A stretch of DNA of 64,000 bases from a virus, in the IMG/VR virus record IMGVR_UViG_3300027749_000107, positions 4,484 through 68,483 of that record; one strand, 5' to 3'. The notes below the pieces were generated by a model. That model was not told the origin of the DNA. It worked only from the letters and a program-made list of their open reading frames with translations, and searched no databases. The position numbers and the translations under genes were made by a program. Below are positions 6,001 to 51,300 of this stretch, in pieces (position 1 is the first letter of the stretch; each line of letters starts with the position of its first letter).

Positions 6001-9000
6001 TTTTCAATAATCATCCCTTGATAAAACTTAAACTCACTAACATCATCTTGAATAATGTTTTCAAGATATTGCCGTTTTTGATAGCCAGTTAAATGCTGTG
6101 CCATCGTTTGCTGCGTCTTATCAAAGTTTTCACTTTCTAAACTATAAAAATCAGTAAACTGAGATGCTTTATAATTCCAATTTGGCATTAATCTTGATAT
6201 AGGTTTTTTACTTAGTTTAATCCAAGTTTTATTATTAAAGTCAGCCTCGCCTTGCGTTGAAATTGTTGCACTATAATAATATGTTTTATAATGGACTACA
6301 TCACCAACTGCATATGATTGCCACGGCACCCATTCTGTAGTAGCTGCTTGATCAACAATAAACCCCGGAACATTAAGCGATCCATTCCAGTTAGTACTAA
6401 CATACCCAGATACTTTAAGTTTGTCTTGTTTATAGCCGCTTGTTGGATTATAAATTGTATCATTAAACATTGTTGAATTATTAATAACTATTATATGTTC
6501 TTTTTGAACTAAGTAAAAACTTGCACAATACACACCAATGTTATTTCTTGGTGTATACGATATTGAGTTGTCTGTTCTATATAATTGTAAAAATGGTGTT
6601 TTAATCTCATTACCAGATTCGTCTAAAATTTCAATAATATTATTTTTATTTGTAACATCATCAATTACAGTAAGTACTGATTTAAATGTTAACAAAGTAG
6701 CAGCAGGACTTAACGATAAAACTGCAGAACCTGCATTATCAAGACCGTTTAACAAATAAAAATCTGCAAAATTAAAGACTTCCGAATCAACCGGCCGTAA
6801 CGCTTTGTAGTAGCTGCCGTTATATCTTATAATATCACCGTACACAATTGGAGTAGACGGAATCCAATCTTTCCACACTTCTTGCATTGACGCCCAGTTA
6901 TGTGTACTCCAGAATAAAAACTCTTTTGCACTAGTTTCCCAGTTTGACACTGCGCCTAACGCTTGATTATATTCGTTAAATTCAAACCCTTGTTCTGTTA
7001 ACCATCTGCCATGTCCAATTAAAAAATCCACAACTTCTTGAATTGATGAAAGTTTACTTGAATACGGCAATATCGCTACTGTAGTACCCCACTTCTGTTT
7101 AAACTCTGCAGAAATGCCACCGACAATAGGCAACGCTGGCAATAATGCAAATTGTGCCTGATCAAACGTAAGAGTTGAAGTATGTGAAGATACTGTTCTA
7201 TAATATCTAGAATTATACGATACTATTTTTCCTGCAACATAGTTCTGTTGCACTGACCACTCGGAGTAAGATTCTGATATTCCGCCAATTGTAAGTGATC
7301 GACCTGAACCGATTGGTTGGTAATATTTAAAATACGGCTGTACTTTACTATATCCTTTGATTTCAAATCCGCCTTGAATTTTAGTAATAATCACACCACT
7401 GTATGTCATTACTGTTATCGGTGACGATGTGCTTAATACAAGTTTATAATCTTCTTGAGGTATAAAAATACTACCAGATTCTGTTGGAGATTTTGAATCT
7501 AACAATAAATTAAATTTCTCTTTGCTTGTAAACGCACCTACACGATGACAAATTTGGGCAGTTAATAACTGTAAATTTGTCGTATATTGATTATAAAATT
7601 TTAATGTTTCGCAATTTAGATAATCAACTAGATAGTTTACTAATCCTGCAGTTTGCACACGCGCAGCACTTAGATATATACTAGGGAGTTTCATATCAGA
7701 TACTTTAATTCGTACTCCGGTGTCTGAATAAACAAGCTGTCCGGCAACATTTCGTATAATACGAGACCTGTCAAACAATACACCAATTGTTTTAGCAGGT
7801 GCTAACAAAATTGCTGCCTTAATAACACTAAACGGGTAATGTGAATGACGTTTCCATGCTGCTTCAATAGGCGATACATCACCAAAGGAAAAATCACCTT
7901 GTTCTGATTGAGATATAACACCAGATGTAAAGTTAGTATAAATTGGACTAACTAAGTTTCCATTAGAATCAACCGGAATATGTTTTAATAAATTAGGTCT
8001 AGCATACTTTGATAATGTGATTGCAGCTTTACCTGGTTCTTTTACAAAACCGTTGCTTAAATCGTGCCATAATACTAAATTATCTTTTGTATACGGCGCT
8101 GGACCATATACGCTAACCCACCATGTTGGCTCTACGCTAAACCCTAAAATTTCCCATGGACAAATGTGAGGACGGTCTGTACCTAACATCCATTGATATA
8201 TACCTCTCCAATATCTTGGACTAATCTGCCCATCGGGTGTATAATGATTTTTATACGCAAATGTAAACGAATTAGTTGCATCGTATGTTAATGCAGTTGA
8301 AAAATCAATTCCAATAACAGACGACCATTGATAAAAATCTGGCATTATTACTGAATTAAATTCAGCCAAACTATAATCTTGTTTTTGATAGTAACTAGGA
8401 ATAAAATCATGAATATTAAAAATAGACGCATTGTACTCTATTTTTATATTATTATAAATCCGTTTTTCTACCTCTAATATTAGATCATCTCTATAATCAC
8501 CATATGCTAATAGTAAACTACCATCATGTCCTTGAATCATCATTCTTGGTATAACTAATGAGGTATCATTATATATCTTAGGTTCATATTTAGGCCACAT
8601 ACCTAGTTTAGTAGGTGTTGCCGGAACTAAACATCCATCAGTTGTATCATACTCTATTATTGTTATAGTATCACCAATAGTAAGAATAGCAGATATTTCT
8701 ACAAATCCTTGACTACTAAATGTATAATCTTTACTATGTAGTAACTGAATATCGTTAACATATACACCAACTGCTTTATTAGATAAGTGGTCTAACGTAA
8801 ATACTTTAGATAACGAATACACATTAATTTCAGAATCATACACTGTAAAATTCGTAGTAATTGCTGCGCCATACGGAATCATATCACTAAAATAGTACGG
8901 AGCAGTTGATGGTGTATCTTTATTAATTTCCAACAGTATTGCATCAACATGCGATCTAGTGTCAGTGTCAATGCCTAATCGTTCTGCAATAACCATAAAT

Positions 9001-11930
9001 GATCTTTTAAATTTAGCATAATCATTACGAGCTAATTCAATTGCACGAATCAAACTGTTGTCAGTTGATGTTATATGATACAACGACAAACTAACAGGTC
9101 CGCTATGTTGTACAAACTTTGTGCCATATGCTGATACTGTACCTAAATCACGTAAATTGCTACGACCTGGATACGTGCCAATAAACGGCAATCTTGTACG
9201 AATATTATCTACAATACTGTCAACATGATCAATAACCTCTCCTAATGTAAACTCTGTTAGTACATTATTCAATGGATTATTTTGTAAATTAATAGGTATA
9301 GCATAATACCCGTTTTTATTAATAGTATAATCAGAATATACTTCAATTACAAGAGTATCAGTTAACTTAAGATTAGTTTTAAATATTATTTGATTATACG
9401 GGAGTTCGTCTTTGTTTTCGTCATACAAGTTTAAGATCCAGTTATTATCCAGATCATTTATCGTATTAGGGGTTTGTTTTGGAACATAATTACCGTTAAC
9501 ATATACTCTGATATCAGTTAATATCGGTAACGAGTACGACGGTATGTTTATGTCAACTAACGATTTAGTATTAAACACTTTATTAAACATGCTAATGTTA
9601 AAATTATTAACGTTATTAGAATTTCTATATACCTGCACTGCTGCTTGCAGATTATCAATACTAGATGTTATCCATCCATTTTCGTAAGATATGTTGCCAT
9701 TAGGTTGCGATATAACTACAAATCCAGTATCGATTGTTTTTGAAATAGTGTTCCCTGATAGATCATAGTAAAATAAATCAGACAGTAACGGAAAGTTAAA
9801 AACAATATCCCCAATATTATTAATATTTTTATACGATATCGGAAAACCTAACTTAGCATCGTTAGTGCCACTACTGCTAATTTTATAAGAAAAAATTGGA
9901 GTACCGATAAATGTTGAACCAGTATATACAGATTTGTCACCAAAACTTATATAGTTGTTATCAACAACATCAAACAATGGTGGCTGATTTATAGCTAGTT
10001 TTTGCTGACACGATTTCCATGTAGTACCATTATACCAATACAGCAATCCCTGGGATGTAATTCCATTCTGTACTAATACTACTTGATTAAGTTCTGGTGT
10101 AGATTCTAGCACTAATCGTAGTTGTCTGCTATTTAACAAGCTGGTAATATTTTTAATTAACCCATATTCAGGAGGAGTATCTTCTAAAACAACTGTATAC
10201 TCTATAGATGTGTTATTAATAATCTTAGTTACTACTGCATTTCCAGTAGTGCTGCTACTTAATTTACCACCAGCTGGTGTTGCAGTAATTACTGATCCAA
10301 CTATTAACCCACTAGTAGAATTCATATTAGTAATAGTTGCTCGCCACCCTGTACTGTCTTTTTCAACTACTGAAATCGTGCCAACGCTACTAACAGTTGT
10401 TGAACTAGTAGTGTGCCTAACATTAATAAACTCAGCACGATAGATGTTATTTGCAACAAATACATCAGTATCGGCAGTAAAAATAACACGCTGTCCGTGT
10501 GTTATTGGTACACTATCAATTCTATAACCTAACGATCCCTCAACAGTTGAAAATACATCAGTAGTAACATGATCAATCAACGAAATATCATCAATTGCAG
10601 TTATTCCACAATTAAATAATTTTAAATTTTTCTTAAACTCAATAATCGGTCTAGCTGCTCGCATTGACTGATCATACGTAGGATAAATTTTATTAAATCC
10701 TGCACTTGTTTCAATAATATCTTTATGAAACCATCTGTTATTTCTACTCCAACAATTTTTATCCTGACTGCCACGGTTTATTGTTATGTAGTCAGGCGTT
10801 CCAGAAAAAGATATCGCATCACTAAATGGTGTTGAATCAAATAATGGAATATCAAATAACATCTCTTTTTGGGTAGTATATTGAGTAACAACTTCTAATT
10901 GTGCTTCGTTAATTAATTGTATCGAGTTACCTACTCCTTCTACGTAATATCTTCCAGATTTATAAGACTCTGGAATAACATTACCAACAAAACGAACTTT
11001 CATGCCGTTACTTAGGGTAGTTCCGTTATCTAAAATAGATTTGTTAAAAGTAAAATCACGTTTTCCTAATATTGTTGACTCAACATCAATTGTGCCGCTA
11101 GTTAACGGATCTGCAATACGGAACACTCCGCCTGCATTAGCATTGTTTTCATTTACATAATACAATGTAGTAAGACCGTCTACCGGCACAGTAAATGTAA
11201 TTACACCAGTTTCAATAGTATTATTTGTAAGACCAATGTTTGTGTATCGTTCTAACGGTCCTTCAACTCGCGATGTTTTAATACTGAATGGATTTCCTAC
11301 ACTGTTAATATTGAAACGGTAAGTACACCCTTTGTACAATGTAATAACTGGATTATTTGTCATCCCATCTGGTGTAAAGATATAAGAATTATCGTTAAGA
11401 TCTACAGTAAATGCACTACTAATAGACTCTACTTGTATTTCTGAACTAATTGTAATAATATCCGGACCATTTGGTAACCAATAATAATTTTGAAAATTAA
11501 CAAACTTGTCCCAATCAATATGCGGATTCCAACTATAAAATTCCTGTTTGTTTAATCGCGGGTGATTAGTAACGTCTGCACCAAACACTTTTAGTTGATT
11601 TATATAATCTTGATAATCTCTCAAAAAAGTAGTATTATCAAGATCGTCGGTAATTAAGAATCCAGGCTCTAATTGATAATCTTGACGTATTTTTGAAGGA
11701 GCTTTTACAAATACATCAGACGACGTTGCTTTTGAATTTACTCTACCTATATAACCACTAACCTTATTAACAACACCTGGTTGAGCAAGCTGAGTCATAG
11801 TTGCTTGCAAAAACTTTTTGTTAGAATCAGTTCTGTAAAAGGTAGGTAAAAACCCTGCAACATTTGCACTGTTGCTGTCGTCAACTGCAGTTGTTCTAGG
11901 TAATAAATTTTGTGTGTTGCTATCTGCCAT
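1..11930 (-). CDS. Giant baseplate wedge/virion structural protein (gp7-like position), >=3976 aa, truncated at the window edge
   Basis: ATG at 11930-11928 overlaps the gp6 stop (TAATG) and reads MADSNTQNLLPRTTAVDDSNSANVAGFLPTFYRTDSNKKFLQAT. The same frame is open where I spot-checked (about 10300 and 4650) and at the edge (PGIVEINGERIEFFIKNGNELSQLRRGTLGTG). It is probably absent from the ORF track because it has no in-window stop. It lies directly downstream of gp6. Confidence 0.85.
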   Translation of the reverse strand, partial: MADSNTQNLLPRTTAVDDSNSANVAGFLPTFYRTDSNKKFLQATMTQLAQPGVVNKVSGYIGRVNSKATSSDVFVKAPSKIRQDYQLEPGFLITDDLDNTTFLRDYQDYINQLKVFGADVTNHPRLNKQEFYSWNPHIDWDKFVNFQNYYWLPNGPDIITISSEIQVESISSAFTVDLNDNSYIFTPDGMTNNPVITLYKGCTYRFNINSVGNPFSIKTSRVEGPLERYTNIGLTNNTIETGVITFTVPVDGLTTLYYVNENNANAGGVFRIADPLTSGTIDVESTILGKRDFTFNKSILDNGTTLSNGMKVRFVGNVIPESYKSGRYYVEGVGNSIQLINEAQLEVVTQYTTQKEMLFDIPLFDSTPFSDAISFSGTPDYITINRGSQDKNCWSRNNRWFHKDIIETSAGFNKIYPTYDQSMRAARPIIEFKKNLKLFNCGITAIDDISLIDHVTTDVFSTVEGSLGYRIDSVPITHGQRVIFTADTDVFVANNIYRAEFINVRHTTSSTTVSSVGTISVVEKDSTGWRATITNMNSTSGLIVGSVITATPAGGKLSSSTTGNAVVTKIINNTSIEYTVVLEDTPPEYGLIKNITSLLNSRQLRLVLESTPELNQVVLVQNGITSQGLLYWYNGTTWKSCQQKLAINQPPLFDVVDNNYISFGDKSVYTGSTFIGTPIFSYKISSSGTNDAKLGFPISYKNINNIGDIVFNFPLLSDLFYYDLSGNTISKTIDTGFVVISQPNGNISYENGWITSSIDNLQAAVQVYRNSNNVNNFNISMFNKVFNTKSLVDINIPSYSLPILTDIRVYVNGNYVPKQTPNTINDLDNNWILNLYDENKDELPYNQIIFKTNLKLTDTLVIEVYSDYTINKNGYYAIPINLQNNPLNNVLTEFTLGEVIDHVDSIVDNIRTRLPFIGTYPGRSNLRDLGTVSAYGTKFVQHSGPVSLSLYHITSTDNSLIRAIELARNDYAKFKRSFMVIAERLGIDTDTRSHVDAILLEINKDTPSTAPYYFSDMIPYGAAITTNFTVYDSEINVYSLSKVFTLDHLSNKAVGVYVNDIQLLHSKDYTFSSQGFVEISAILTIGDTITIIEYDTTDGCLVPATPTKLGMWPKYEPKIYNDTSLVIPRMMIQGHDGSLLLAYGDYRDDLILEVEKRIYNNIKIEYNASIFNIHDFIPSYYQKQDYSLAEFNSVIMPDFYQWSSVIGIDFSTALTYDATNSFTFAYKNHYTPDGQISPRYWRGIYQWMLGTDRPHICPWEILGFSVEPTWWVSVYGPAPYTKDNLVLWHDLSNGFVKEPGKAAITLSKYARPNLLKHIPVDSNGNLVSPIYTNFTSGVISQSEQGDFSFGDVSPIEAAWKRHSHYPFSVIKAAILLAPAKTIGVLFDRSRIIRNVAGQLVYSDTGVRIKVSDMKLPSIYLSAARVQTAGLVNYLVDYLNCETLKFYNQYTTNLQLLTAQICHRVGAFTSKEKFNLLLDSKSPTESGSIFIPQEDYKLVLSTSSPITVMTYSGVIITKIQGGFEIKGYSKVQPYFKYYQPIGSGRSLTIGGISESYSEWSVQQNYVAGKIVSYNSRYYRTVSSHTSTLTFDQAQFALLPALPIVGGISAEFKQKWGTTVAILPYSSKLSSIQEVVDFLIGHGRWLTEQGFEFNEYNQALGAVSNWETSAKEFLFWSTHNWASMQEVWKDWIPSTPIVYGDIIRYNGSYYKALRPVDSEVFNFADFYLLNGLDNAGSAVLSLSPAATLLTFKSVLTVIDDVTNKNNIIEILDESGNEIKTPFLQLYRTDNSISYTPRNNIGVYCASFYLVQKEHIIVINNSTMFNDTIYNPTSGYKQDKLKVSGYVSTNWNGSLNVPGFIVDQAATTEWVPWQSYAVGDVVHYKTYYYSATISTQGEADFNNKTWIKLSKKPISRLMPNWNYKASQFTDFYSLESENFDKTQQTMAQHLTGYQKRQYLENIIQDDVSEFKFYQGMIIEKGTQNVLNKLFDVLSHDGQESLQFYEEWALRSGQYGASAAFENIEFVLDESLFKTNPQPIELVDSIGFNLSSLVIRQLPSDLYVKPIGYKSEFWPKAKYVASNAVYARTDEVKTSVKTIKDILALNVADYSLNDYILCSTVNETEWAVYQYVESGFIVRNIDISENGYVFNLAKAVTLVAGTIISITDTLVIDGFYIPINITSTTFEIVVDTNTVVLNHATVRILKNRKLPSIDHNNYLFNELPHVNSKTGKLSYSCKLWIDNTDGRWETWEFNPAYTLTEVYTNDIESDFGRKIVSNSAGTLVAVLSKNYISVYNRDKNNHYWRLNQKIRAIADTIAMSKSGEWLSFVNTADTTPVVYLYELVGQYFQTASLSVIQPTGAVKFGTTLTFANDTFFIGTANGRLYRYRYTSSTPILRSYNPQGSVNTTLVVSNTAGISAGMLVSGTGFSQVTTIVQEVINSTTLLLATAPTETPSGTLLFTTYSWLPVSGYLTHGGTFGTSVVSSSNGVVAVLDRSDNGKVYVYTSANNYSNEKCVILPAANVTFGQSLAISNNANYIAVSSANNLYLYTLQNDGSYLPNTLQLYISNPSASEGNYDKSNIQFSDDHKTIVVSSSVKETTFTKVNSITHLVVGITTFDDGKTTFSSYTSDVDVFNMYNDKWNFSERLSPPTSTLNNTGYGDQIAVTPTSIIISARNVKNTARLYEYVKDRTKFSWAVKHAAIDKPDITKIKQAFLYNRRTNKLIKYLDIVDPIQHKYPNIIEREVKFKTTYDPAVYSVGTSAVNVDEGIAWDSEQVGVLWWDKRTTKFVDSFTDNVMYRNSVLSMLVPGASVDIYEWVESDILPSVWDEEADTEAGLATGISGKSLYGDTVYTKITRYDTLSQIEIPTYYFWVKNKTTVSPLLGRSISAYDVSTLISNPKGVGYEFIAVTGRNSLSLVNIKPHLIHTDVVLSIEYWLTDKTDQNIHTQWKLISTAPQTVLPAHIERKWIDSLCGKDEYDRLVPDQALPIKLKYGIENRPRQGMFVNRFEALKQLIEEVNRYLSSNLIVDTIDLTSLEQSDSPPALVRCLYDTVIYTDAELPYVVTQYVKSPELTSIVVNGRITGITIVSPGYGYKLAPFINVYGVGINAKLKAIINLKGEIVGVDIINAGNGYLTDTILTVRDFSALVTSDSQANNSWTIYSYSSITGLWSKSVSQAYNVTNYWETVDWYATGYSKFSFSNYAVDTYADLYSVNATVGQLVTVRTTTAGRWVLLERYNAEIKELIPDNESFEYDWTASYKIVGSQDGTIQFTSTLYNFINTAIGYDGVLYDSIVYDNCAATELRIILNSIKDILSNDAYLKLFFTSVRYAMSEQTYIDWIFKTSFVNVVHNVGNLHQSVTYQNDNLSNYEDYVSEVKPYRTQIREYVSLYSNIETSASEVSDFDLPATYDLNLKRVVPVVVTTTASGGLQSTNDAIQQYPWKSWADNVGFSVVNISVIDGGSGYTLSPKVVISSESGYGATAVAYIANGKVNRINIVLPGKSYLTIPTVHIIGGLSHAGSVANAIAVIGKSVIRTNTINLKFDRNTYSVTQTDLRETETIPVLLVTGKRTQFPLKWEPSTIVGNTSVVVNGAIEIRDHYKVSTVSIKVNGYTKLSGMIEFNRTIAKGSIIEVTYVRANSALNAVDRIEHYYNPAPGELGKDLAQLLVGIDYGGVEISGLNFGVKHGWDRSNFDTIKWDNVNVKFNDLVFKYIGGAASITIPFPEDGFSVPSEGTVLTVYYEPTFGSSDPIRIDGGDIMESPIATGSVTNVIIPVTFFNQHFINLGLPVPESCTFIIREVTSDGATSNDNDYDVSLAGGTFNSSELSGIKLPIDATGIAIDDIIIDGDNFENKFSGLEEVVPGKVSDSLSIKVYTNASDTTTAYTYMQFKDMLNRTHYKRMPEVKQTTLVKALLNTDTSIFVNDASMFTVPDPTANKPGIVEINGERIEFFIKNGNELSQLRRGTLGTGISDYVMPHSVVQ

Positions 11931-26209: not shown

Positions 26210-28273
26210 ATGCGATTAAGAGAATTATACGAATCAATCAATTTATTTGAAAATTATAACGGCAAGGTTAACAAACTTAAAACAGAATTTCCAGAAGATG
26301 CTGCAGCAATTGATCAACAAGTGCAATGGGCTGTAACCTATTTGAAAAAAAATCAAGCTATACTTTGGTACTTAAGTATATTAGAAGCTGGTTTATATAA
26401 AAATCAAGCAGTATTAGCAACACTAATACCATCTGGCTTTCTTACTGACCCCTCTATATTTGATTCATTAGGTTCGATTCAGTACATGCTTACACATTGG
26501 GTTGCTTCTGAACTAGCATCAAATAGACGAATAACAGATGTAATAAATACTATTCGTCTAGGCACAAGTGTAACAAATCTAGTAACAGAACTTCGCAGAG
26601 CAGAAGAACAAATAATTAAAGATAACGAAGCTGCAAGAGCAGACGCACAACCAATAGAAATATTAGAAGGGGACCATCCTGTATTGCAAGTACCAGGCAC
26701 TAACAACACATGGTGGCAGTTACCTCATTATTCTCACAGCCCAGAGTCACAGTTTATGGGACATTGCGGTACTTGTCAATTCCCTGAAAATAACTTGTTA
26801 AGTTTAAGAACTGCAATTCCGCAACCTATGCTAACATTTGAATGGAATCCAGATACTCATGAGTTATATCAAACAAAAGGACCTAAAAACAGCAAACCTA
26901 ATAGCAAATTTTATCCAGATATATTAGCATTATTATTAAGTCCAGTTGTAAACGGAATTGCAGAAGATTCATGGCTTCCAGCAACTGATTTTTCTGTATT
27001 TGATTTACCAAATAATATGCTTAATCAAATCATAGCTACTAAACCTAAACTAATTGACGATCAAATTGAAAAATATCCAATCGATTTCTTAAGAGCACCA
27101 AAGAACGTGTTAGCTAATGAAAGATTTAGATCAGTTGCATTTGATAAATCTTCCGGTTTAAATTCACTAATAACAGAAGAAGGAGATATTGATCTGTCTA
27201 ATGACGCTTGGGAAAACGCAATTGAACAAAATAAAGATCTGATAATTTATGCACCTGACACTGTTCAAAATTACAAACAACGTGTTGGACGTTGTATTGG
27301 AGAACGTCCAAATCTACTTAATTATGTAAGTGCAAAAGTTAGAAATGATTTTGAAATACTAAAAGAAGCAGTTTATAGCAATCGACGTTACGATATATTT
27401 GAGCATATTCCGTCTCATTATAAACACTACAAAGAGTTAGTTAAAGCTGCATTTGAATCTGGAAATAATTGGGATCTTGATTCATTTGATCATCAATTTA
27501 TTGATTTAGATATCTGTATAAAAGTAGTAGCAAATTCATCAGATCCTAGCTATGCATTTTCAGATATCGAACATATAGGTATACTAAATCATCAAGATAT
27601 GGGGAAGTTACTAGGATTAGCAGTTGAAGCTAACCCTTATATAGTACAATACTTGAGAGGTGATTTAGTAGACGACTATTTAACTTTTGAACATTTAAAA
27701 ACTGCTGCGTCAGTTGACGGTAACATAATTGATCCGAGTGGAACTAGTTGGTCACTCGATGATGTTGTTAACCCGGACGAATTATACGAATTAGCAGTTA
27801 TTGCATTAAAAACAGCTCCATTTTTAATAGACGAATTTATCAATCGATATAGTTTTACAGATGAACAAGCATTTAATTTATGTATGTCTGCAGCTGGTGC
27901 TAGAGGAAATCTTAATACTCTTGATGTATTGATTGATCATAACTTCTTTAAAGGTGGTAATCAAACATTTAAAATTGCATCAAAAGCAATCGCCAACGGA
28001 GCTTCATTACAATATATTACTCCCGTTGCCGACGGTGAATCTTTGCCAATAGATGCCGGTTATGTTACAGCTGATCAGTATGAACAACTTGCGCACCAAT
28101 CGATAGCAATAGACGGTTATAACTTAAAATGGGTAGACGATAATTTTAAAACTTTCCAATTATGTAAAGCTGCAATTAAATCTAACCCAACATCATTTAA
28201 TTTTATAAATCTAAAATTGCTAACAAGTGAAGAAGAAGAAAAATTAAGAGAATTAGCGTTCGGAGGTCGATAA
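26210..28273 (+). CDS. Hypothetical protein with PcfJ-like domain and DUF4116-like helical repeats; possible head-packaged protein
   Basis: ESQFMGHCG...LLSLR...PMLTFE...QTKGPKNSKP resembles the PcfJ pattern. C-terminal repeats such as LKWVDDNFKTFQLCKAAIKSNP. CTAAATA late-type motif at 26182-26188. N-terminus MRLRELYE. Confidence 0.55.
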   Translation: MRLRELYESINLFENYNGKVNKLKTEFPEDAAAIDQQVQWAVTYLKKNQAILWYLSILEAGLYKNQAVLATLIPSGFLTDPSIFDSLGSIQYMLTHWVASELASNRRITDVINTIRLGTSVTNLVTELRRAEEQIIKDNEAARADAQPIEILEGDHPVLQVPGTNNTWWQLPHYSHSPESQFMGHCGTCQFPENNLLSLRTAIPQPMLTFEWNPDTHELYQTKGPKNSKPNSKFYPDILALLLSPVVNGIAEDSWLPATDFSVFDLPNNMLNQIIATKPKLIDDQIEKYPIDFLRAPKNVLANERFRSVAFDKSSGLNSLITEEGDIDLSNDAWENAIEQNKDLIIYAPDTVQNYKQRVGRCIGERPNLLNYVSAKVRNDFEILKEAVYSNRRYDIFEHIPSHYKHYKELVKAAFESGNNWDLDSFDHQFIDLDICIKVVANSSDPSYAFSDIEHIGILNHQDMGKLLGLAVEANPYIVQYLRGDLVDDYLTFEHLKTAASVDGNIIDPSGTSWSLDDVVNPDELYELAVIALKTAPFLIDEFINRYSFTDEQAFNLCMSAAGARGNLNTLDVLIDHNFFKGGNQTFKIASKAIANGASLQYITPVADGESLPIDAGYVTADQYEQLAHQSIAIDGYNLKWVDDNFKTFQLCKAAIKSNPTSFNFINLKLLTSEEEEKLRELAFGGR

Positions 28274-28572
28274 TGTTACCAAATGAAGAACTACATGACG
28301 AAATAATGAAAGCATTTGACGAATACTTTAGAGCAAATCAAAGATGGGCTACTAATCAAACTGATATTAGTTGTGTTCAAGTACGCAAATGTTTACAAGA
28401 ACTTAAACGAGTTAGCCTTAAATTAAGACAACTATGTGATCAGCAACGTACTGTTGTACAAGATTGGAGATATGCAAATTTTTCACCTAAACAACCTAGC
28501 AGACGTGCAATTGCTATGATAGCAGAACGTAATCAAAAAGCACTTGATGCTAAGAAAGATAAGGATAATTAA
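28273..28572 (+). CDS. Small basic helical protein (possibly Hc1/histone-H1-like phage protein)
   Basis: FDEYFRANQRW...QVRKCLQELKR...QRTVVQ loosely resembles phage Hc1-like proteins; TAATG-coupled to the upstream gene. The ORF is likely real, the family call is weak. Confidence 0.4.
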   Translation: MLPNEELHDEIMKAFDEYFRANQRWATNQTDISCVQVRKCLQELKRVSLKLRQLCDQQRTVVQDWRYANFSPKQPSRRAIAMIAERNQKALDAKKDKDN

Positions 28573-28587
28573 AGTAAAAAGGACTTT

Positions 28588-29109
28588 ATGCCAAGTAAAA
28601 GCAAATCAAAAGGTAATAACTGGGAAAACACGGTATCAAAACATTTAAGCTCACTGTATAGTGCATCTTTCATTCGTGTTCCGGGAAGTGGTGCATACAT
28701 TGGAGGTAAGAATGCAGTGCGCAAAGACTTCTTACACGAAGGACAAATTCGTTCTATGAAAGGTGATATTGTACCGCCATTAAATTGGAAACACTTTAAT
28801 GCTGAATGTAAATCGTATGCTGATTTTCCATTTCATCAATTGTTTACTGCAGGTGAAATTAAGATTTTAGATACTTGGATTGAGCAAACTTTAGAAGTTG
28901 CTGATACAGATGACTTTAATATTATCATGATGAAGTTTAATCGCAAAGGCTCCTATATTGCGTTTGAACATAAGCATATCAAAAAATTCAAACTACAAAA
29001 AAGTGTAGACTATTACTCTAAAAAGAACGGTAAATGGGTATTTACTGATTACGATTCTTTTTGGAATGCAAATCACGAAGTTGTTAAAACGTTGTGTTTG
29101 GCTAAATGA
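28588..29109 (+). CDS. PD-(D/E)XK nuclease, Hjc-type Holliday junction resolvase-like
   Basis: SKSKGNNWE...RVPGSGA...GDIV...AECKSY matches the Hjc pattern. Confidence 0.7.
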   Translation: MPSKSKSKGNNWENTVSKHLSSLYSASFIRVPGSGAYIGGKNAVRKDFLHEGQIRSMKGDIVPPLNWKHFNAECKSYADFPFHQLFTAGEIKILDTWIEQTLEVADTDDFNIIMMKFNRKGSYIAFEHKHIKKFKLQKSVDYYSKKNGKWVFTDYDSFWNANHEVVKTLCLAK

Positions 29110-29113
29110 TTAG

Positions 29114-29142
29114 TTGACTTCCTTCCACTATTACTGTATAAT
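29114..29142 (+). promoter_or_regulatory. Sigma70-type promoter for RNase HI, plus late motif ATAAATA at 29173-29179
   Basis: TTGACT (29114-19), 17-nt spacer, TATAAT (29137-42); same boxes as the gp55 promoter. Confidence 0.8.
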
Positions 29143-29222
29143 CGTTTTCAAGAAGAAGTAAAAAGTGTTCAGATAAATATTTGTTTAACAACTAAACACA
29201 CTAAAATCTAACACAAAACACT

Positions 29223-29639
29223 ATGGACGAACTCGTAATAATATACACAGACGGTGCATGTGTTCCTAATCCAGGTAAAGGCGGATGGGGAGCTACTATG
29301 CAATACAAAGGCGTTATAAAAGAATTTTCTGGAACAGATACACAAACTACTAACAATCGCATGGAAATGCAAGCTGCTATTGAAGCACTGTCGCGTTTAA
29401 AAAGACCATGTAATGTTAAAATTTATTCTGATTCAAGATATCTTATAGACGGCTTTACTCAATGGTTACCTAATTGGAAAAAGAAAGGACGTACAGATTA
29501 CTTAAATCGTGATTTGTGGTTACAATTAGAAAACGTTGCACTTACTCATAACATTCAATGGGAATGGGTTAAGGCACATGTTGGAATTCCAGGTAACGAA
29601 CGCGCTAACGACTTAGCTGAAGCTGCTGCTCGTAAGTAG
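29223..29639 (+). CDS. rnhA: Ribonuclease HI
   Basis: IYTDGAC.PNPGKGGWG, TTNNRMEM.AAIEAL, YSDSRY, N.DLW, WEWVKAH.G.PGNERA. The D10/E48/D70/H124 equivalents are present. Confidence 0.95.
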   Translation: MDELVIIYTDGACVPNPGKGGWGATMQYKGVIKEFSGTDTQTTNNRMEMQAAIEALSRLKRPCNVKIYSDSRYLIDGFTQWLPNWKKKGRTDYLNRDLWLQLENVALTHNIQWEWVKAHVGIPGNERANDLAEAAARK

Positions 29640-29669
29640 CCATTTTTGCGCTTCTTGCAAATATACATT

Positions 29670-29677
29670 TATAAATA
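29670..29677 (+). promoter_or_regulatory. Perfect T4 late promoter TATAAATA upstream of an ORF-free structured region
   Basis: Exact consensus match; no ORF of 60 aa or more until 30315. Confidence 0.65.
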
Positions 29678-29684
29678 TCAAGCA

Positions 29685-30110
29685 ACAAATACACTAACAT
29701 AAGGTTGGCAGGCCGGTTTGTAATACTGCTGAGACAAGTTCTGGAAACGAGAACCGCTGCTCAAATCGTTGATTGTGCAACGGCTTTTAAACACTACCCT
29801 CACGCGAGAGGATGCCAAAAGCAACGTCCATTGACGTCAATGCTTTGTTTAATCGGAATGGTGGACTAGCTGTATTTGAAAAAGAATACATAGGCCTTAA
29901 ATCTGTAGAATACTAGTAATAGTAACAATTTCGTAATGATATACATAGCACCTGAAAGTTATATCTTAAAAATACCTGTAAGTAGTGGTCCGGAGGTAGC
30001 CAATACGAGAGTTTACAGTCACGTAAAATCTTACTGCGATTCCATGGCGATGGGGTGAAATCATGCATCCAAGTTTATTAGGGTGCATCTGACTTCAAAA
30101 GTGATATCTA
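29685..30110 (+). ncRNA. Candidate large structured non-coding RNA, family not recognised; boundaries approximate
   Basis: ORF-free, richer in G+C than its flanks, at least 8 local hairpins plus possible long-range pairings, directly behind a late promoter. Confidence 0.55.
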
Positions 30111-30192
30111 TTATCTTTCATAATTAAAATATAAATTATATTATTTCATATATAATTTAATTTTTTTCTTTCTTAAGTTTCTTTAGATAAAA

Positions 30193-30238
30193 GTATTGAG
30201 CGATAGCGAAAATACAGATGAACGTTAGTTCATCTTTT
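30193..30238 (+). terminator. Tandem hairpins: GTATT-gagcgatagcgaa-AATAC and AGATGAAC-gtta-GTTCATCT-TTT (terminator or ssDNA-origin signal)
   Basis: Perfect 8-bp stem at 30216-30235 followed by T residues; preceded by an AT-rich tract at about 30110-30195. Confidence 0.5.
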
Positions 30239-30314
30239 AATATGAGAATTAATTTTTTATAAATATTCATATTATATAAGGGATATTACGAAAGCAATAT
30301 CATAAAGGATCATT

Positions 30315-31124
30315 ATGAAAATACAAGAAATTATAGAAACTTCTGATGAAAGGTTTCTACGTGAAGCAGATGGTTTTATTAAACAAGGACTTAAAGCCTT
30401 AGGTAACAAGGTATTTCCTAGTGCAGGAAATAGAATGGCCGGCGCATCAGAAAAGATGAGTATGTTACGTGCTGACTTTAGTGTACTAGCAACAGCTGGT
30501 AAATTTGCAGCATTAGTAGCACCATTTTGGACATATTATAAAAATATGTCAAATGTAGAAGACAATTATAAAAGCGGTGCATACACTGTAGAGCAATATA
30601 AAGAGAATCATCAAATACAATTAGGATTATTAATTGAAGAAGAGGCTGCTATATTAGGAACGCTTGGAGCCATGGCTTCGATAAATGTTTTATCAATGTT
30701 GTTTAATGTATTACCTATTTTTGGTCCTATTTTAGGAGCAATATTTAGAGGGTTAGCACCCGCAGCAGGTGCTTATATGTTAGTTTGGCTTAACACAGAT
30801 GAAGGGCGTAAAGCTCTAGCATCATTAGTGTCTGCAGAATTTATTAAAAACACTGGAGCAGTAGCTGAAACAGCAATAAATGCAATACGTGATAAAGCAC
30901 ACGAAGCATTAGGCATGAAACCAGAAACTGATCCAGCATACACAAATACACCATCTCCAAACGGTACTACGCCAAATGCAGATCCTGCTAAACCCGATGA
31001 TAAAAAAGATGATAAAAAAGATGCAGCTCCTAAATCAAAATATAATCCAAAAACTGACTTTACACCAGAAAGATTTAAAAGAGATGCTAATGGCGAGTTA
31101 ACATTAGCATACGATAAAGGCTAA
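30315..31124 (+). CDS. Hypothetical late protein with hydrophobic central segment
   Basis: TATAAATA at 30258-30265, AAGGA RBS, N-terminus MKIQEIIE, hydrophobic stretch AAILGTLGAMASINVLSMLFNVLPIFGPILGAIF. Confidence 0.75.
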   Translation: MKIQEIIETSDERFLREADGFIKQGLKALGNKVFPSAGNRMAGASEKMSMLRADFSVLATAGKFAALVAPFWTYYKNMSNVEDNYKSGAYTVEQYKENHQIQLGLLIEEEAAILGTLGAMASINVLSMLFNVLPIFGPILGAIFRGLAPAAGAYMLVWLNTDEGRKALASLVSAEFIKNTGAVAETAINAIRDKAHEALGMKPETDPAYTNTPSPNGTTPNADPAKPDDKKDDKKDAAPKSKYNPKTDFTPERFKRDANGELTLAYDKG

Positions 31125-37657: not shown

Positions 37658-37665
37658 ATAGATAT

Positions 37666-37902
37666 ATGATACTTAGAGAACTTTTTTATATTGATCCTAA
37701 CACTCGGAATGTAGCAAATGATTTGCGATATACTGAGGACAACGATAACTCTGCGATGCATCGGTCTGATACACGCAAAACGCGATTGTCACTTAGGCAA
37801 ATTAACGAATTACGTAAGAGCAGTGAAGCTCATATTTTAGAACAAGAAGTTGAATTACAGTTTGTTAATGCAATGTATTCTACTCCAGCCCCGGCTGCTT
37901 AA
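37666..37902 (+). CDS. Small prohead-associated protein
   Basis: Between portal and core/protease genes; DTRKTRLSLRQINELRK; ATAAATA (37654-60) 5 nt before the ATG. Confidence 0.7.
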   Translation: MILRELFYIDPNTRNVANDLRYTEDNDNSAMHRSDTRKTRLSLRQINELRKSSEAHILEQEVELQFVNAMYSTPAPAA

Positions 37903-38018
37903 AAAAATCTAAAACGATTCAAAAACCACCGGTTTGACCCTATTTTTACCTTCTTTTTTATAAGTAGTGTAAATATAAGACAGCCTTGTAGAAAAATAGA
38001 ATATCACAGGAGATTAAC

Positions 38019-45394: not shown

Positions 45395-48300
45395 ATGTCA
45401 ATAAATCTTTCAAGCATTCTAAAAGGAGGAACACTACCAGTTATCCACGGTGGTACTGGAGTAACTGTTTCAACAGGTTCTGGAAGTCTTGTGCTATCAA
45501 CAAGTCCTTCATTAGTTACTCCTGATTTAGGAATTGCGACTGCTACTTCTGTTAATAAAGTTGTATTCACAACTCCGTCCTCTGATGCAACTTTGACATT
45601 AGCCGGTGGAAAAACATTAACAGTTAATAACACACTAACGTTTAACGGTACAGATAACTCAACAGTGTTGTTTAGCTCAGGCGGAACAATAATTTATGCT
45701 GCAGATAAACTTTCTGCATTTACATCATCATCGTCATCTGCTGATTTAGCAGGTATTATTAATGATGAAACTGGTTACATAACAGGTGCAAAATTAATGT
45801 TTAGCACTAGCCCGCAAGTAACTACATCATTAACAACTAATTCGGTAAGTTTTGATTTGATTAATACTACTGCAAGTACTGTAAATTTTGCAAAAGCTGC
45901 AACTGCACTTAGCATAGGCGCATCGACTGGAACTACAACTGTTAATAATAATTTACAAGTTGCTGGAAACATTTACTTTAACGGAACTGCTAGTCAACTT
46001 AGCTCAACAACTATTGAAGTTGCCGATACGTTATTAATGTTAGCTAAAAGTAACCCAGCAGACTTAGTTGATATTGGTGTATACGGGTCATATGTTTCTT
46101 CAATTACTAACAATGTAACATACACTGGCTTAATAAGAGATGCAAACGATAATGGCACATGGAAGTTGTTTAGTAGGCTTACTGAGAACCCAACTACTAC
46201 TGCAGATTTTAATACTGCAGTTTATGATAACTTAAAAATAGCTGCATTAACTGCAACTACTGGTAACTTTTCAGGACAAATAACATCAACACTTGCAACA
46301 GGTACTGCACCATTTTCAGTTGTGTCAACTACTCCAGTTACAAATTTAAGTATTGGTGGTAACGCTGCTACTGTTACAACCAACGCAAATATGACAGGGC
46401 CAATTACAGGAACTGGTAATGTTACCTCTATTACAAGTCAAACTGGTACAGGTACTAAATTTGTTGTTGACACTAGTCCAACGTTAATTACTCCTGTATT
46501 AGGAGCAGCAACTGCAACGTCTATAAACGGTTTAACAATATCAAATTCAACTGGTACATTAACTGTTGCAAATTCTAAAACATTAACTGCAAGTAACACA
46601 CTGACATTTACAGGCACTGATACATCAACTGTTGCATTTGGTGCAGGCGGTACTGTTGTATACACGAGCAATAACTTATCTGTATTTTCAACTACTACAT
46701 CTGCTCAATTAGCAGGTATTATTTCAGACGAAACTGGCACAGGGGGATTAGTATTTGCAAATACTCCAACATTAATTACACCAGAAATTGGTGCTGCAAC
46801 TGGTACATCTGTTGTATTAACTAGCGATTCAAAAATTAACGGATTAACAGTTGGTAAAGGTGCAAGCAATATTGTAACCAACACTGCAGTTGGTTATCAA
46901 ACACTGTTAACTAACACATCAGGAGCACACAATTCTGCATTTGGCTACCGATCACTTACACTAGCAACTATTGCAGCAAACAATACTGCAATTGGCGATT
47001 CATCAATGGCATTAACAGTTGACGGTGGAGACAATGTTGCAATTGGTTTTAAATCATTATTAAGCAATACTTCAGGTGCTCAAAATGTTGCAATAGGGGC
47101 ATTTGCAGGTTACAATCTTGGTACTAATGCAAATACTACAGGGACTAACAACACATATATTGGATATCGTACAATTGGATCAGCTGCTGCGAATACAAAC
47201 GAATTAGTAATTGGTGCAAATGCAGTTGGCTTAGGTTCTAACAATACTGTACTTGGTAACACTAACACAACTAACACAACAATTTACGGTGCGCTTTCAA
47301 TACCCAATACTACTGCATCATCAAGTTCTATTACAGGTGCATTAACAGTTGCCGGCGGATTAGGAGTTTCTGGAGACATTTATGTTGGCGGAAATCTAAC
47401 GGTAGACGGCTTAGTTACTACTATTAATTCTAGTACAATCACAGTTGATGATAAAAATATTGAATTAGGATCAACAGCAACACCAACTGACGTAACAGCA
47501 GACGGCGGCGGTATTACATTAAAAGGGTTAACTGATAAAACATTTACGTGGTATGCGGCATCTAATAGTTGGGTAAGTAACGTTGGCATTAAAGCAGACA
47601 GTATTCAAAATACACCAATTGGTTCAATTACTCCTAGTACAGGCGAGTTTACTAGTGTTACTGTTGAAGATGCAGGAAATTTAATATTTAAAGAATCTGC
47701 AATTAACGGCGTAAATTATATTACTATTAAATCACCAAACAGCGTTGCAGTTGATTATGTGTTAACATTACCGGCATCTCAAGGCGCTCGCGGGCAAATA
47801 TTAACCAATGTCGGCACAGGACAATTAGAGTTTACTGATGCTGATGCGTTTGGCGGCAACAGAATCTACGCATCATCAATAAAAGGTGACGATAATAACG
47901 ACGGTATTTCTGCTCCAGTTAGAACAATTAAACGTGCATTGCAGATTGCATCAGGATATGTATATAACTCGATAGGTGCAGTAACAGGAGACCGTGTTGT
48001 AGTATCAGTGTCAACAGGATCTTATGTAGAAAACAATCCAATGATTATTCCTGATAACGTTAGTGTAATAGGTGACGCATTAAGAGCATGTTTAATTAGA
48101 CCTGCAAACGCAAATAAAGACATGTTTAGATTGCGTAATGGCGGTTACTTTGCAGAATTTACATTTAGAGACAATATAACAGCGTTAGGGGTTGCATCGT
48201 TTACATGGGCATACGCTTTTGCATTTGATGATGTATTTGATACTGGATGTAGTCGTGTAGGATATATTAACTTACCAAGTACTAAACCTATCATGACATT

Positions 48301-51300
48301 GTCACCATACATTCAAAATTGTTCTATTATTAGTTTCTTAGGCGGTAATGGTGCATACGTAGACGGGAGTAAAGTTTCTGATCCTAACGTACCAACTAGC
48401 TTATTAGAAGTAGAAATTAACCCAACAGGTGCAGTTCCAGTACAATGCAAATCAATGATCGCTAACGCGTTTACTATGGTTACATTTGGTGGTACTGGCT
48501 GGCGTGTAGTAAATGAAGCATATGTCCAGTTAGTATCATGTTTCCAATTATTTGCATTAAACGGTGTTTATACACAAAGCGGCGGCTATGCATCTATTAC
48601 AAACTCTGCAACTAACTTTGGTAAGTACGCACTTCGCTCTTCTGGATTTTCGCCAACTGCGTATACCTATGATAGAGGTTTTGTTGCAGCAGTTGGTTCT
48701 TCAGGTAGTGATCAGAATATTACAGCAATTGGGTTTACAAGACCAAACGGTCCTGTTGAACAGTATGTTATTAGAATTTATGATAACAATGCATTCACAT
48801 ATAACGTAGCAATATGCCAACGTGATGTTGGGTTTATTATTGATGCAATTAGTTATGATATGATGTTTGGATCTAACTTTAGATCGATTAGTGCTGCAAA
48901 AACTTACTATTCTGCACAAGCATCAACTGTAATTGGATTACAAAAAACTGCAACAATAGCGGCATTTACGTACTTACGAGATTACGTTGCTAATGCAGTT
49001 AACGGTGACCCAACTGCAGGTACATCTGTTATTACTAATATGAATATTATTAATAATATTATCGATACTGGATTAAGCAGTATTCCTGCATACGTGTTAC
49101 CTATTCCTCCTAATCGTGCTGCAGGATATTTAAATGCTGCAAGATTGTTTTATGCTAATAAATCATTTATCCAATACGAAGTTGTTGCATTTTTAAATAC
49201 AAATTATAATACATTATGGAATACAACTTTAAACTCAACACAACGCTCACAATGTACTCGTGACATAGGATATGTAGTTGATGCAATAAACTACGATTTA
49301 ACGTATGGCGGTAACTTAGAAACTGCAGTATCTGCTCGTATGATGAAAAATCAACTAACTGGCGTACTAGTTGAACCACCAAGTGAAACTGCTGCTATTA
49401 CTGCTGTATATTCTAGACTATACAGCATTGCTGAATACATAGTAACAAATTCAACATCATGGATTAAATCAACCGGTAACGTAGCAACGCAGTACATTAG
49501 TGGTACTGCTGCAACACTTGATGCAATTAATGCCACAAAAGCACGTTTAGAAGAAATGAGAGTAATGGTAAGTACTGGAGTTGAACCAACAGTATTGTAT
49601 CCAGATACAACATGGGTTTCAAATGCAAATTTAGTTACTCAGTATTCTATTTTACAAACTAATAAAGATGCAATTAAAGGTTTTGTTACTGATTATATAT
49701 CAACACAATATGGTGCAACTGATAAAACATCAGAATATAAAATGCAATCGCCTGGTTATGTATCTGTAAACATTAATGCAATAACCGGCATAGACTTAAC
49801 ATCAAATGTATTTACTACTAGTGTAAATCACGGATTTAGTAACGGTGACACCGTTGTTTATAATAGCACAGGTCATAGTCCAATTGGCGGAATGTTTACT
49901 GGTGGCACATACTATGTATTGTACTTAAATGCACTGCAATTTAAATTAGCACACGATAATAGTTTAAGTATTTTACTTGATATTGTATCTACTAGCACAG
50001 GTATCCATACATTTGTTAAAAATCAATACGAATTGTGTGTTAATGCAGTGTCTGCCTCTCATAATACATTCCAAACGCTAGTGTTAATATCAAATTTGCA
50101 TACGTTTGAACCTGGTGATCAAATTGAAGCTACGGTTAGTGGATTCCCAGCAAATGCAAGTGTATACAGTTACGATGGTGCAACTACAATAGTAGTTGCT
50201 ATTAATCAAGTTACTATTAACTCAGCACTAGTTCGTAAATTATTCATCGGTGGCAGTTCTACAATTATAAAAGTTAATTCTGCAGACGGTACATCAACTG
50301 TGTTTAGTCCAGGAATTGCAGTAAATACTGCAACACTACGAGCTGATTTGTATGCTGCAACATTTAATGTTGTACCAACCCTAATTGGTGGATCATTTGA
50401 TAATACCGGAACAATGGTAGGTAAACAGATTTACTTCCATAGAGCAAGTATTATTAACTCGTCAAGTCATACTTGGGAATATGCAGGATCAGGCATTGAT
50501 TATAACGCATTACCGGTCAATGGCGGGAGATCTAATCCATTATTTGAACAACAACAAGAAAATGCAGGCCGTGTTTATACTTCAGGTACAAATGAACTAG
50601 GCGACTTTAAAGTTGGTGATTTTATTATTGCGTACAACAGAACAGGTAATATTGAATTTAAAAACACAGTTACTGTTAGTCAATTAAACGTATTAAAATT
50701 AGCATTAAGTGATATTTCAGTTAACGCAATTAGTAACGATATTGGATTAGGCGAAAACGAAGTAGGTGGCCCAACTGACAACAAATTAAGTACCCAATTA
50801 TCAATATGGACTTATGCAAATACTCGATTAGGCGCATTTATTGATAAGTCAGTTAGTACTAATGCAATTCCTGGTGCGCTTGTACAATTAAATGCAACAG
50901 GTCAGATTAATTCTGATTTAATTCCTGCACAACGTACTGCAGCATCAATTATTACATCAGGTTACCGTTCAAGATTACTTGCATACGAAGATGTGCCGCC
51001 TTTCAACTTCTTATCAGGCGATGGCAGTACAGAAGATTTCCAAATAGTTACATTAACATTAAGTTTACCAATAACTGCGTTAGACGGTGCAGTAGTTACA
51101 CAATCAACTAGCGGAGCATCTGGTTTATTAAAAGGAAATCATACTAACGCTACTTCAATATTAGTTGCTAGTGCTACTGCTACATTTATTACGTTATTTG
51201 ATACTACTGCCGCTCATGTTTTAATTATTAATTCTAATTCTGCACCAAGTACAACTGGAACTGCTGTGTATTGTACAACAGTTGGCACTGCAATTGATGC

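Follow-up and report, generated by a model that had tools for sequence, protein, structure and literature searches.

A gene for a large structured RNA in freshwater T4-like jumbo phages, probably a diverged long form of the Polynucleobacter-1 RNA

The window analysed here is a 64-kilobase (kb) piece (positions 4,484 to 68,483) of the 68-kb viral contig IMGVR_UViG_3300027749_000107, which had an estimated completeness of 19%. Between an RNase H gene and the next gene, positions 29640-30314 of the window (675 nucleotides, nt) contained no open reading frame (ORF) of at least 90 amino acids (aa). An earlier reading of the letters alone (the sequence-only reading) had proposed a novel large phage RNA at this place. 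Comparative analysis indicated that the gap is probably a stand-alone gene for a structured non-coding RNA of the + strand, a diverged member of the long-form Polynucleobacter-1-type RNAs (RF01718). Transcription would probably start a few bases past the TAAATA at 29672-29677, and the RNA would consist of a 410-nt multi-domain core (29696-30105), an AU-rich linker, a GA-hairpin and a terminator-like hairpin, ending at about 30238. Judged from sequence comparison, it appears to be a constant gene of all phages sampled from a large clade of T4-like jumbo phages from fresh water. Direct support was obtained for its conservation, its covariation-backed fold, its strand, its non-coding status, its synteny, its shared 3' module and its sharing between host and phage.

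Conservation and fold of the RNA

Twenty viral loci were retrieved through the RNase H protein, and the gap sequence was present in 19 of them at 77-99.8% identity; the blastn set consisted of these 19 and locus L021. Three pattern scans of viral contigs found only the window's clade, plus five chance 17-mers in coding DNA, and a single pattern scan of metagenomes added five close relatives, of which two contributed new sequence variants. The 41 loci yielded 11 distinct full-length cores of 406-436 nt (alignment A3). This form of the RNA is called type A below. The core was 98% identical in L013, 97% in L017, 94% in L003 and 92% in L009, while in the same four relatives the RNase H was 84-87% and the baseplate hub 71-77% identical. 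In the two most distant type-A members, core identity was 82% and 79%, partly from the replacement of one hairpin. The flanking genes were swapped cassettes, and the RNA kept its place; most relatives were without the DUF4116 gene, three had an insert of about 2 kb before RNase H, and the gene downstream of the RNA was unalignable at the DNA level among relatives.

Single-nucleotide insertions and deletions (indels) within the conserved stretches preserved no reading frame, and the core is considered non-coding because of them. A coding gene or an alternative genetic code was ruled out by these indels together with the tight packing of the window with genes under translation table 11 outside the gap. 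A search for homologues of the downstream 269-aa protein found none in viral contigs or in the deposited-phage set, and a DNA search of the deposited-phage set gave no match to the gap or to a type-B RNA (see below). Core identity, swapped flanks and indels mark the element as constrained, conserved and non-coding.

Two checks named by the sequence-only reading, folding energy against dinucleotide shuffles and covariation among homologues, came out differently. The minimum free energy of the + strand was -96.6 kcal/mol against -98.7 +/- 5.2 kcal/mol for the shuffles (z +0.41), and 65 of 100 shuffles folded as well as or better than it; z was -0.92 for the - strand. RNAalifold was run twice, the local hairpins agreeing and the long-range helices differing, and a curated model of 83 pairs in 15 helix segments kept only supported or uncontradicted helices. 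Across the 11 sequences of A3, 98.5% of the cells of the curated pairs were paired. Two-sided changes were found in 12 of the 83 pairs, compared with 4.1 +/- 1.2 in shuffles (0 of 500 reached 12), and control partners slid by 1-3 columns gave 0-1 such changes. It was the comparative evidence, rather than the folding energy, that exceeded chance. Since many G-U pairs in A3 would read A.C on the opposite strand, the + strand was fixed, as had been argued from the G-U pairs. The proposal of a large structured non-coding RNA on the + strand was therefore upheld by comparative fold, conservation and non-coding status.

All features of the RNA lie on the + strand. The 410-nt type-A core (29696-30105), modelled from the covariation of the 11 homologues in A3, begins with a 5' domain (29707-29852) whose helices H1-H6 have the Polynucleobacter-1 topology when set against the RF01718 structure line. 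H1 (29707-29711/29726-29730) changes from A-U to G-C in a related subtype (type C). It is followed by H2 of the curated model (29731-29736/29758-29762 plus 29738-29742/29750-29754) and by H3 (29766-29771/29778-29783), which had three covarying pairs and was among the best-supported helices. The invariant H4 (29787-29792/29847-29852) encloses H5 (29798-29801/29808-29811) and H6 (29818-29828/29833-29846); within the latter, H6b was among the best-supported parts and H6a was invariant. Next comes a peripheral hairpin of variable length (29863-29896, base 29863-29866/29893-29896), which had a larger, different insert in L019 and a shorter insert in L012; one base pair of it (A3 columns 175:231) was A-U in 4 and U-G in 5 sequences.

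The central domain (29903-30018), supported by covariation, is closed by the stacked long-range helices H8 (29903-29909/30012-30018) and H10 (29929-29933/30006-30010). H8 varied by one G-U only, and three of the five pairs of H10 changed on both sides (C-G in 6 and U-A in 5 sequences; U-A, U-G and C-G; G-C in 9 and A-U in 2). H9, a GUAA hairpin (29911-29924), changed from U-A to C-G in L017 and L019, which lie on different branches. H8, H9 and H10 belong, like H3 and H6b, to the helices with the best support. H11 (29938-29943/29960-29965) was invariant, as was a 36-nt stretch of the domain (29948-29983); a variable-length hairpin together with such an invariant stretch is typical of a folded functional RNA. 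The core is completed by the 3' hairpins of the curated model (30039-30087), H12 (30039-30045/30050-30056) and H13 (30064-30070/30081-30087), and UCUGAC after H13 is a word common to types A, B and C.

All eight local hairpins listed by the sequence-only reading were found at their coordinates, and seven recurred in the comparative model. The eighth, TGTATT/AATACA, lies in the variable-length hairpin; 9 of the 11 distinct homologues have it, and a different sequence takes its place in L012 and L019. Its long-range pairings fared worse. For TTGGC with GCCAA, position 29707 is A in L005 and L012, giving A.C, and 29707-29711 pair locally with 29726-29730. For CTGTAA with TTACAG, position 30013 is C in 10 of 11 sequences, again giving A.C; CTGTAGA (29903-29909) pairs with T(T/C)TACAG (30012-30018) in 11 of 11. 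Both strands of CTACC/GGTAG were invariant among the homologues. The suggested GNRA loop, GGAAACG, was not conserved; the conserved loop is instead GUAA at 29916-29919.

Relation to the Polynucleobacter-1 RNA

Eighty loci were fetched whose portal proteins were 62-95% identical to that of the window (portal homologue alignment A4). The clade of freshwater T4-like jumbo phages has genomes of about 330-372 kb, and the close relatives of the window are complete 372-kb genomes with terminal repeats. All 29 loci whose flank reached 6.5 kb or more upstream of the portal gene had an RNA match, at an upstream distance of 4.4-6.8 kb from that gene; because the hidden Markov models (HMMs) were built partly from those loci, this count shows presence at the locus and not independent detection. 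In the window, the core begins 6219 nt before the portal gene. In two complete genomes the RNA was present once per genome.

The RNAs fell into three sequence types, type A being that of the window's clade. Type B was the commonest form (full-length in 25 loci, partial in 2 more); 33 of its 67 RNAalifold pairs changed on both sides, and a 7-base-pair helix from a hairpin loop to a distant strand (alignment A5 columns 244-250/384-390) covaried in 7 of 7 pairs. Type C (L100/L101, L116, L132 and others) has its first approximately 40 nt in common with type A and carries the A-U to G-C change that supports the first hairpin. The type-C HMM aligned to the window end to end over 29697-30240 (nhmmer E 4.3e-9, five colinear high-confidence blocks). 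Type C also matches type B across its last approximately 200 positions, and the last approximately 65 nt of the core and the 3' hairpins are common to types B and C. With the type-B HMM, the window gave a match at 30196-30240, in the 3' element (E 5e-6). RNase H was absent at the locus in types B and C; the gene before the RNA there is either that of a PDDEXK nuclease (L057, L116, L134) or a different one.

The 3' module consists of three parts in the same order in all types and in bacterial copies. The AU-rich linker (30106-30192, G+C content 0.13-0.26) was poorly conserved at 73-98% identity. The GA-hairpin (30193-30215, outer stem 30193-30197/30211-30215) was 91-100% identical and common to every subtype and to the bacterial copies; its outer stem covaried between subtypes and the inner GAGC...GCGA was kept, which would form tandem G.A and two G-C pairs with a loop of 4-5 nt (4 nt in the window). 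A fully paired version of this hairpin with a GCAA loop was found in L086. The terminator-like hairpin (30216-30238) has 8 pairs, a GTTA loop and a following TTTT, and one pair changed from A-U to U-A in L132. The 3' end of the RNA is likely to lie at this hairpin, near 30238.

In types B and C, the last conserved hairpin has one copy of a 13-nt direct repeat on either side (alignment A5 columns 406-418 and 463-477; about 5385-5450 in L059). The two repeats varied in parallel, with the same substitution in both copies in several lineages and never in the Watson-Crick sense. No partner was found for them, and they were unrecognisable in type A. Pairing with each other or as a palindromic dimer failed in L087/L088 and in type C, and in 5 loci that were read the variable dinucleotide of the type-B repeat was uncorrelated with the bases preceding the late-promoter word.

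RF01718 (gathering cut-off 37 bits) matched the 5' third of the type-B RNA, with 66.8 bits in L059 and 66-121 bits in 9 of 10 further loci, the tenth being without that part of the contig. Because the motif forms the 5' third of the type-B RNA, these results indicate that the Polynucleobacter-1 motif is only the first domain of an RNA of about 430-520 nt. The window matched no Rfam 15 family within the element, at gathering or at E<=10, when 2001 nt and 561 nt were searched, so the cmscan check named by the sequence-only reading gave no known family; the type-A locus L019 likewise had no RF01718 match. H1-H6, derived from type-A covariation alone, nevertheless had the order and nesting of the RF01718 structure line (compared by eye, with no statistic), namely three hairpins and then a stem enclosing two hairpins. 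ACUACCC...GGAUG lies at 29793-29813, directly after the 5' strand of the enclosing stem, and this variant also occurs in the type-B loci L065, L094, L120 and L128. Locus L136, missed by Rfam at gathering, carries the first hairpin of types A and C (nhmmer E 0.066) together with the family's 18-nt hallmark in exact form. R1, our own model of only 18 base pairs from 23 phage type-B 5' domains, scored it at 15.7 bits (E 1e-3), over the same model part as in the window (see below).

On the basis of the locus, the 3' module, the chain from A through C to B, the 5' topology, the ACUACCC...GGAUG word and the bridging L136, type A is likely a diverged orthologue of the Polynucleobacter-1-type RNA. The sequence-only reading had proposed a novel RNA; a wholly novel class is not supported, in view of the locus and 3' module shared with an RNA of about 430-520 nt in 29 of 29 jumbo-phage loci, of RF01718 forming the 5' third in most loci and of the same helix order and nesting in the window's 5' domain. 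Weinberg 2010 (PMC2864571) has the motif only as a table row, entered as RNA 'y', cis-regulatory 'y' and switch '?', for Burkholderiales and fresh water/estuary. A search of the open literature found no follow-up on Polynucleobacter-1 since 2010 and no further paper naming the motif. The IMG/VR v3 candidates of Fremin 2023 span 29-151 nt in the consulted part of that paper (PMC10690425), and the consulted passages of Perez-Hernandez 2025 (PMC12619734) mention neither non-coding RNA nor Polynucleobacter. What is new here is the RNA's full length and domain structure, its home in phages, its occurrence in both host and phage, and the DUF6641 neighbour.

Bacterial copies, genomic setting and expression

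A scan for the 18-nt hallmark with one genome per species gave 22 loci. Among them were Polynucleobacter isolate chromosomes, namely a 2.15-Mb contig bearing two copies and a 3.15-Mb contig of P. rarus; the remaining loci were in metagenome-assembled genomes (MAGs) labelled as many different phyla. RF01718 was found in 6 of 7 scanned bacterial loci at 86-98 bits. L141 had the full layout of 5' domain, about 250 nt, hairpin, linker, GA-hairpin and terminator, and its neighbours were ordinary chromosomal genes. Twelve of the 22 loci had the 3' element at 322-376 nt past the hallmark, and in 10 of these 12 no ATG-started ORF of at least 40 aa began within 260 nt (ATG starts only), which disfavours a leader role.

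A DUF6641 gene (PF20346, also phrog_31551) adjoined the RNA in 13 loci (L135-L138, L140-L147 and L155), and it was divergent from the RNA in the loci whose ORF maps were examined. The DUF6641 proteins were 44-81% identical to one another. DUF6641 was not found in 5 phage records (4 of them 93-100% complete), a soft absence because the control matched no genome, and the protein had no match in the deposited-phage set. Its AlphaFold2 model had a predicted local distance difference test score (pLDDT) of 73.2 and 0 PDB matches at E<=0.001; the protein atlas returned its own family only, and it was not mentioned in the literature searched. The hallmark was also held by 80-200-kb contigs in MAGs labelled Nitrospira, Bordetella, Chitinophagaceae and Hyphomicrobiales (L137, L140, L151, L152 and others). 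L137 and L140 had true RF01718 matches with DUF6641 adjacent, so the taxonomic labels of these bins may be wrong; other MAG hallmark loci may be chance matches.

The sequence-only reading had called the gap the largest ORF-free one, and 675 nt was indeed the longest of the gaps between the window's large ORFs. The runner-up of 361 nt (37658-38018) lies directly after the portal gene. The G+C content was 0.42-0.47 at 29700-29899, 0.41-0.42 at 29950-30099 and 0.13-0.26 at 30050-30299. The upstream neighbour (29223-29639) is a cellular-type RNase HI gene (Pfam RNase_H, E 3.5e-43), preceded by gp47/gp46-like SbcD/SbcC genes, the DUF4116 gene and a PDDEXK nuclease gene. The next gene (30315-31124) is a 269-aa ORF of no assigned family, and further downstream are a baseplate-hub gene on the opposite strand, a 1210-aa ORF and a T4 gp20-like portal gene. 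Compared with L003, L009, L012, L013 and L019, the region 26210-29223 was mosaic; the 687-aa DUF4116 gene was missing in 4 of these 5 relatives, and in L003, L009 and L019 the PDDEXK gene was separated from RNase H by an insert of about 2 kb.

The gene behind the RNA (window 30315-31124; L059, L062, L064, L074, L082, L098, L101, L116 and L132) was unalignable between subtypes except for a pattern at the N terminus, about 9 residues long (MK, I/V, x, E/D, I, ...E). The pattern resembles the capsid-targeting sequence of T4 internal proteins; if this likeness is true, the gene would encode a hypervariable injected protein. Some portal homologues (P0016, P0047-P0049, P0051 and P0079) were about 1000 aa long with an intein domain (PF14890, Pfam annotation). 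Freshwater-2 RNA (RF02980) was matched in the type-B loci L082 (16834-16916, 75 bits) and L062 (16018-16094, 62.7 bits), in both cases about 6-6.8 kb past the portal start, and the window had no gathering match to it. Very large ORFs of the window were 3-11930 on the - strand (more than 3976 aa, open-ended) and, on the + strand, 45395-54913 (3172 aa) and 54945-59348 (1467 aa).

The promoter-like TATAAATA, a T4 late-promoter word, lies on the + strand at 29670-29677, and only its TAAATA (29672-29677) was invariant in the relatives. At this place the 10 distinct rows of alignment A1 had TATAAATA in 3, CATAAATA in 1 and TGTAAATA in 6, so the 'perfect late promoter' of the sequence-only reading holds for the four rows with TATAAATA or CATAAATA and not for the six with TGTAAATA. 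A second TATAAATA on the + strand (30258-30265), the promoter-like word of the next gene, lies outside the RNA and marks its boundary. TATAAATA occurs 6 times in the window, where 13 copies would be expected; a start codon follows four of them at a distance of about 29-57 nt, and another is the copy ahead of the RNA. Because the word mostly precedes start codons or the RNA, T4-type late promoters are plausible in the window. The type-B RNA starts directly at the end of the preceding ORF, with no promoter word there. Between the terminator and the next gene, (T/C/G)ATAAATA was found in the window and most of the 12 loci read, with none in L077, L073 and L098.

Metatranscriptome contigs from two runs of one study covered 29713-30183 and 29707-30002, with a depth of 3.8-5.8 on the element and 2.5-4.3 on the RNase H piece. 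As contigs of a single study, in which uncovered parts carry no meaning and from which neither ends nor expression can be claimed, they give a weak hint of expression.

Alternative readings, proposed role and comparison with known systems

Several observations weigh against a diverged Polynucleobacter-1-type RNA in the window. RF01718 failed on the window even at E<=10 and gave no match in type C. The best R1 match was at the expected place (29775-29851, model 68-136) with only 2.4 bits (E 0.29), and by sequence the type-B HMM detected only the 3' element at 30196-30240. As for the fold, the single sequence did no better than shuffles and the two RNAalifold runs disagreed on the long-range topology. 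H4, H6a and H11 never varied and H8 did so only by one G-U; H4, H6a and H11 are thus neither supported nor contradicted within the type-A clade, which samples about 5 deep lineages, so that counts of changed cells are of non-independent events. The adjacency of DUF6641 in related Burkholderiales may be inherited synteny and not a functional link, and nothing was found that links the phage RNA to DUF6641.

The missing covariance-model match to RF01718 or R1 at significance, the restriction of the type-B HMM match to 30196-30240, and central and 3' parts of the type-A core without a recognisable type-B counterpart would fit a different structured RNA that displaced the Polynucleobacter-1-type RNA at the locus and kept only its 3' module; this would be a new class. 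We consider such a displacement quite unlikely, in view of the end-to-end alignment of type C to the window in five colinear blocks (E 4.3e-9) and its 3' third shared with type B, the equal order and nesting of the 5'-domain helices with ACUACCC...GGAUG at the same point, the combination of the type-A/C first hairpin with the canonical hallmark in L136, and the gradient of scores from 66-121 bits (Rfam) to 15.7 and 2.4 bits (R1). A cis-acting leader, riboswitch or attenuator, controlling the next gene is improbable. The consulted row of PMC2864571 has cis-regulatory 'y' and switch '?', all phage loci read have a same-strand gene after the RNA, and the two are separated by a terminator-like hairpin. 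However, (T/C/G)ATAAATA intervenes between terminator and gene in the window and most of the 12 loci, the downstream gene is unalignable between subtypes (among the listed portal loci L055-L156, tblastn matched only L056), 10 of 12 bacterial or MAG loci lack a nearby ATG-started ORF, and about 85 nt of AU-rich linker separate core and hairpins. A conserved class of downstream gene without a separate promoter, by which a riboswitch or leader is recognised, was not found.

Every type-A locus has RNase HI immediately before the RNA, the core gives way to a very AT-rich stretch, and the locus is at the end of a DNA-metabolism module including the gp46/47-like genes. An RNA tied to RNase HI, either a primer of an R-loop like those of ColE1 or T4 origins cut by RNase H, or a 3' untranslated region of the RNase H gene, is very improbable all the same: RNase H is a type-A-specific insertion, absent at the locus in types B and C; about 15 helices, the 36-nt invariant stretch and the chromosomal copies do not fit a simple primer; and the RNA is single-copy while the strand switch of the window lies elsewhere, at about 20.5 kb. 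That there is no functional RNA at all, the gap being a decayed gene or a DNA-level element, is hardly credible. The chance-level fold of the single sequence would agree with it, and against it stand a core better conserved than the neighbouring genes, indels that break every frame, and pair-preserving changes with many G-U that would be A.C on the other strand.

Known RNA classes were also considered. As the sequence-only reading had stated, no transfer RNA (tRNA), transfer-messenger RNA, RNase P RNA or group I/II intron was present, with nothing in Rfam 15 at E<=10 and 0 genes by ARAGORN in the window. Nor did the element match 6S, SRP, GOLLD, ROOL, OLE, HEARO, raiA or pRNA of Rfam 15 at E<=10. 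A retron RNA was rejected, RVT_1 being absent in 2 of 2 complete relatives (the control matched 3 of 14 genomes), as was a GOLLD-like tRNA neighbourhood, the tRNAs lying more than 80 kb away in genomes G001 and G002.

The preferred reading remains the stand-alone gene for a diverged long-form Polynucleobacter-1-type RNA. For its role, we infer an action in trans with a partner, just as we infer the transcript ends and the expression time. The folded RNA would be a specific binding partner of, or scaffold for, a protein; in bacteria the protein would most likely be DUF6641, and the phage copy, which has no DUF6641 with it, would either provide the host RNA during infection or mimic it. This protein-partner role is tentative, and we give it slightly less than an even chance. 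A ribozyme or a self-assembling 'ornate' RNA is unlikely. Also rather unlikely is a rare large 'ornate' RNA, be it a ribozyme or the RNA part of a DUF6641 ribonucleoprotein in Polynucleobacter and its relatives, that jumbo phages infecting these bacteria captured alone to seize or neutralise the host system; in that case a phage mimic might titrate or disarm the DUF6641 partner as pseudo-ToxI does with ToxN, and the paired 13-nt repeats of types B and C might be two recognition sites. Nothing points to DUF6641 as a toxin (no fold match and no mention in the literature; no PADLOC search was made). The homologous copies in bacterial chromosomes disfavour a purely virion-assembly role.

Bacterial and phage RNAs of such size and complexity are few, and to our knowledge all large ones of known function are ribozymes or ribonucleoprotein cores. 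With these results, an orphan motif gains context as part of a multi-domain, partly pseudoknotted RNA of about 430-520 nt and as a constant component of a freshwater T4-like jumbo-phage clade that is both large and abundant. The same RNA occurs in Polynucleobacter chromosomes beside a DUF6641 gene not found in the phages, and a shared RNA with a candidate protein partner makes the question testable in cultivable Polynucleobacter. There is also a lesson of method: a fast-diverging subtype fell below both the Rfam model and the shuffle test, yet was recovered via synteny.

Pseudo-ToxI is a phage-borne copy of a host antitoxin RNA of a type III toxin-antitoxin system. The likeness to it is a host RNA gene beside a small protein gene, of which the phage has the RNA alone; ToxI is an array of short repeats, whereas the RNA here is a single large folded one. 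Like the pRNA of phi29, the RNA is phage-encoded and structured and may act in trans with phage proteins; it differs in size and fold and in the missing Rfam match, and its bacterial copies argue against a purely virion-assembly role. GOLLD and ROOL are described, in the consulted part of the cryo-EM report (PMC12286853), as large ornate RNAs that are often borne by phages or prophages. The RNA resembles them in being large, multi-domain and phage-borne, without an assigned function and with highly conserved unpaired stretches. In contrast to them, it is smaller, has no Rfam match and does not lie beside tRNA genes, and its family gave no sign of self-assembly, the one palindrome examined, in the type-B repeats, failing in L087/L088 and type C.

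The closest known system is RF01718 itself. The window RNA shares its helix order and the ACUA(U/C)CC...GGA(C/U)G word, located just past the 5' strand of the enclosing stem, and the motif is contained as the 5' domain (66-121 bits) in orthologous RNAs of other phages and Polynucleobacter chromosomes. With these long RNAs, it has in common the locus, the 3' GA-hairpin and the terminator. It scores below any threshold of RF01718, and its first hairpin and loops have other sequences. The motif as described measures 141 nt, whereas the window core is 410 nt, or about 545 nt with the 3' hairpins. The motif is listed for Burkholderiales and for metagenomes of fresh water or estuary, and provisionally as cis-regulatory; here it belongs to a gene of T4-like jumbo phages and apparently to a stand-alone RNA.

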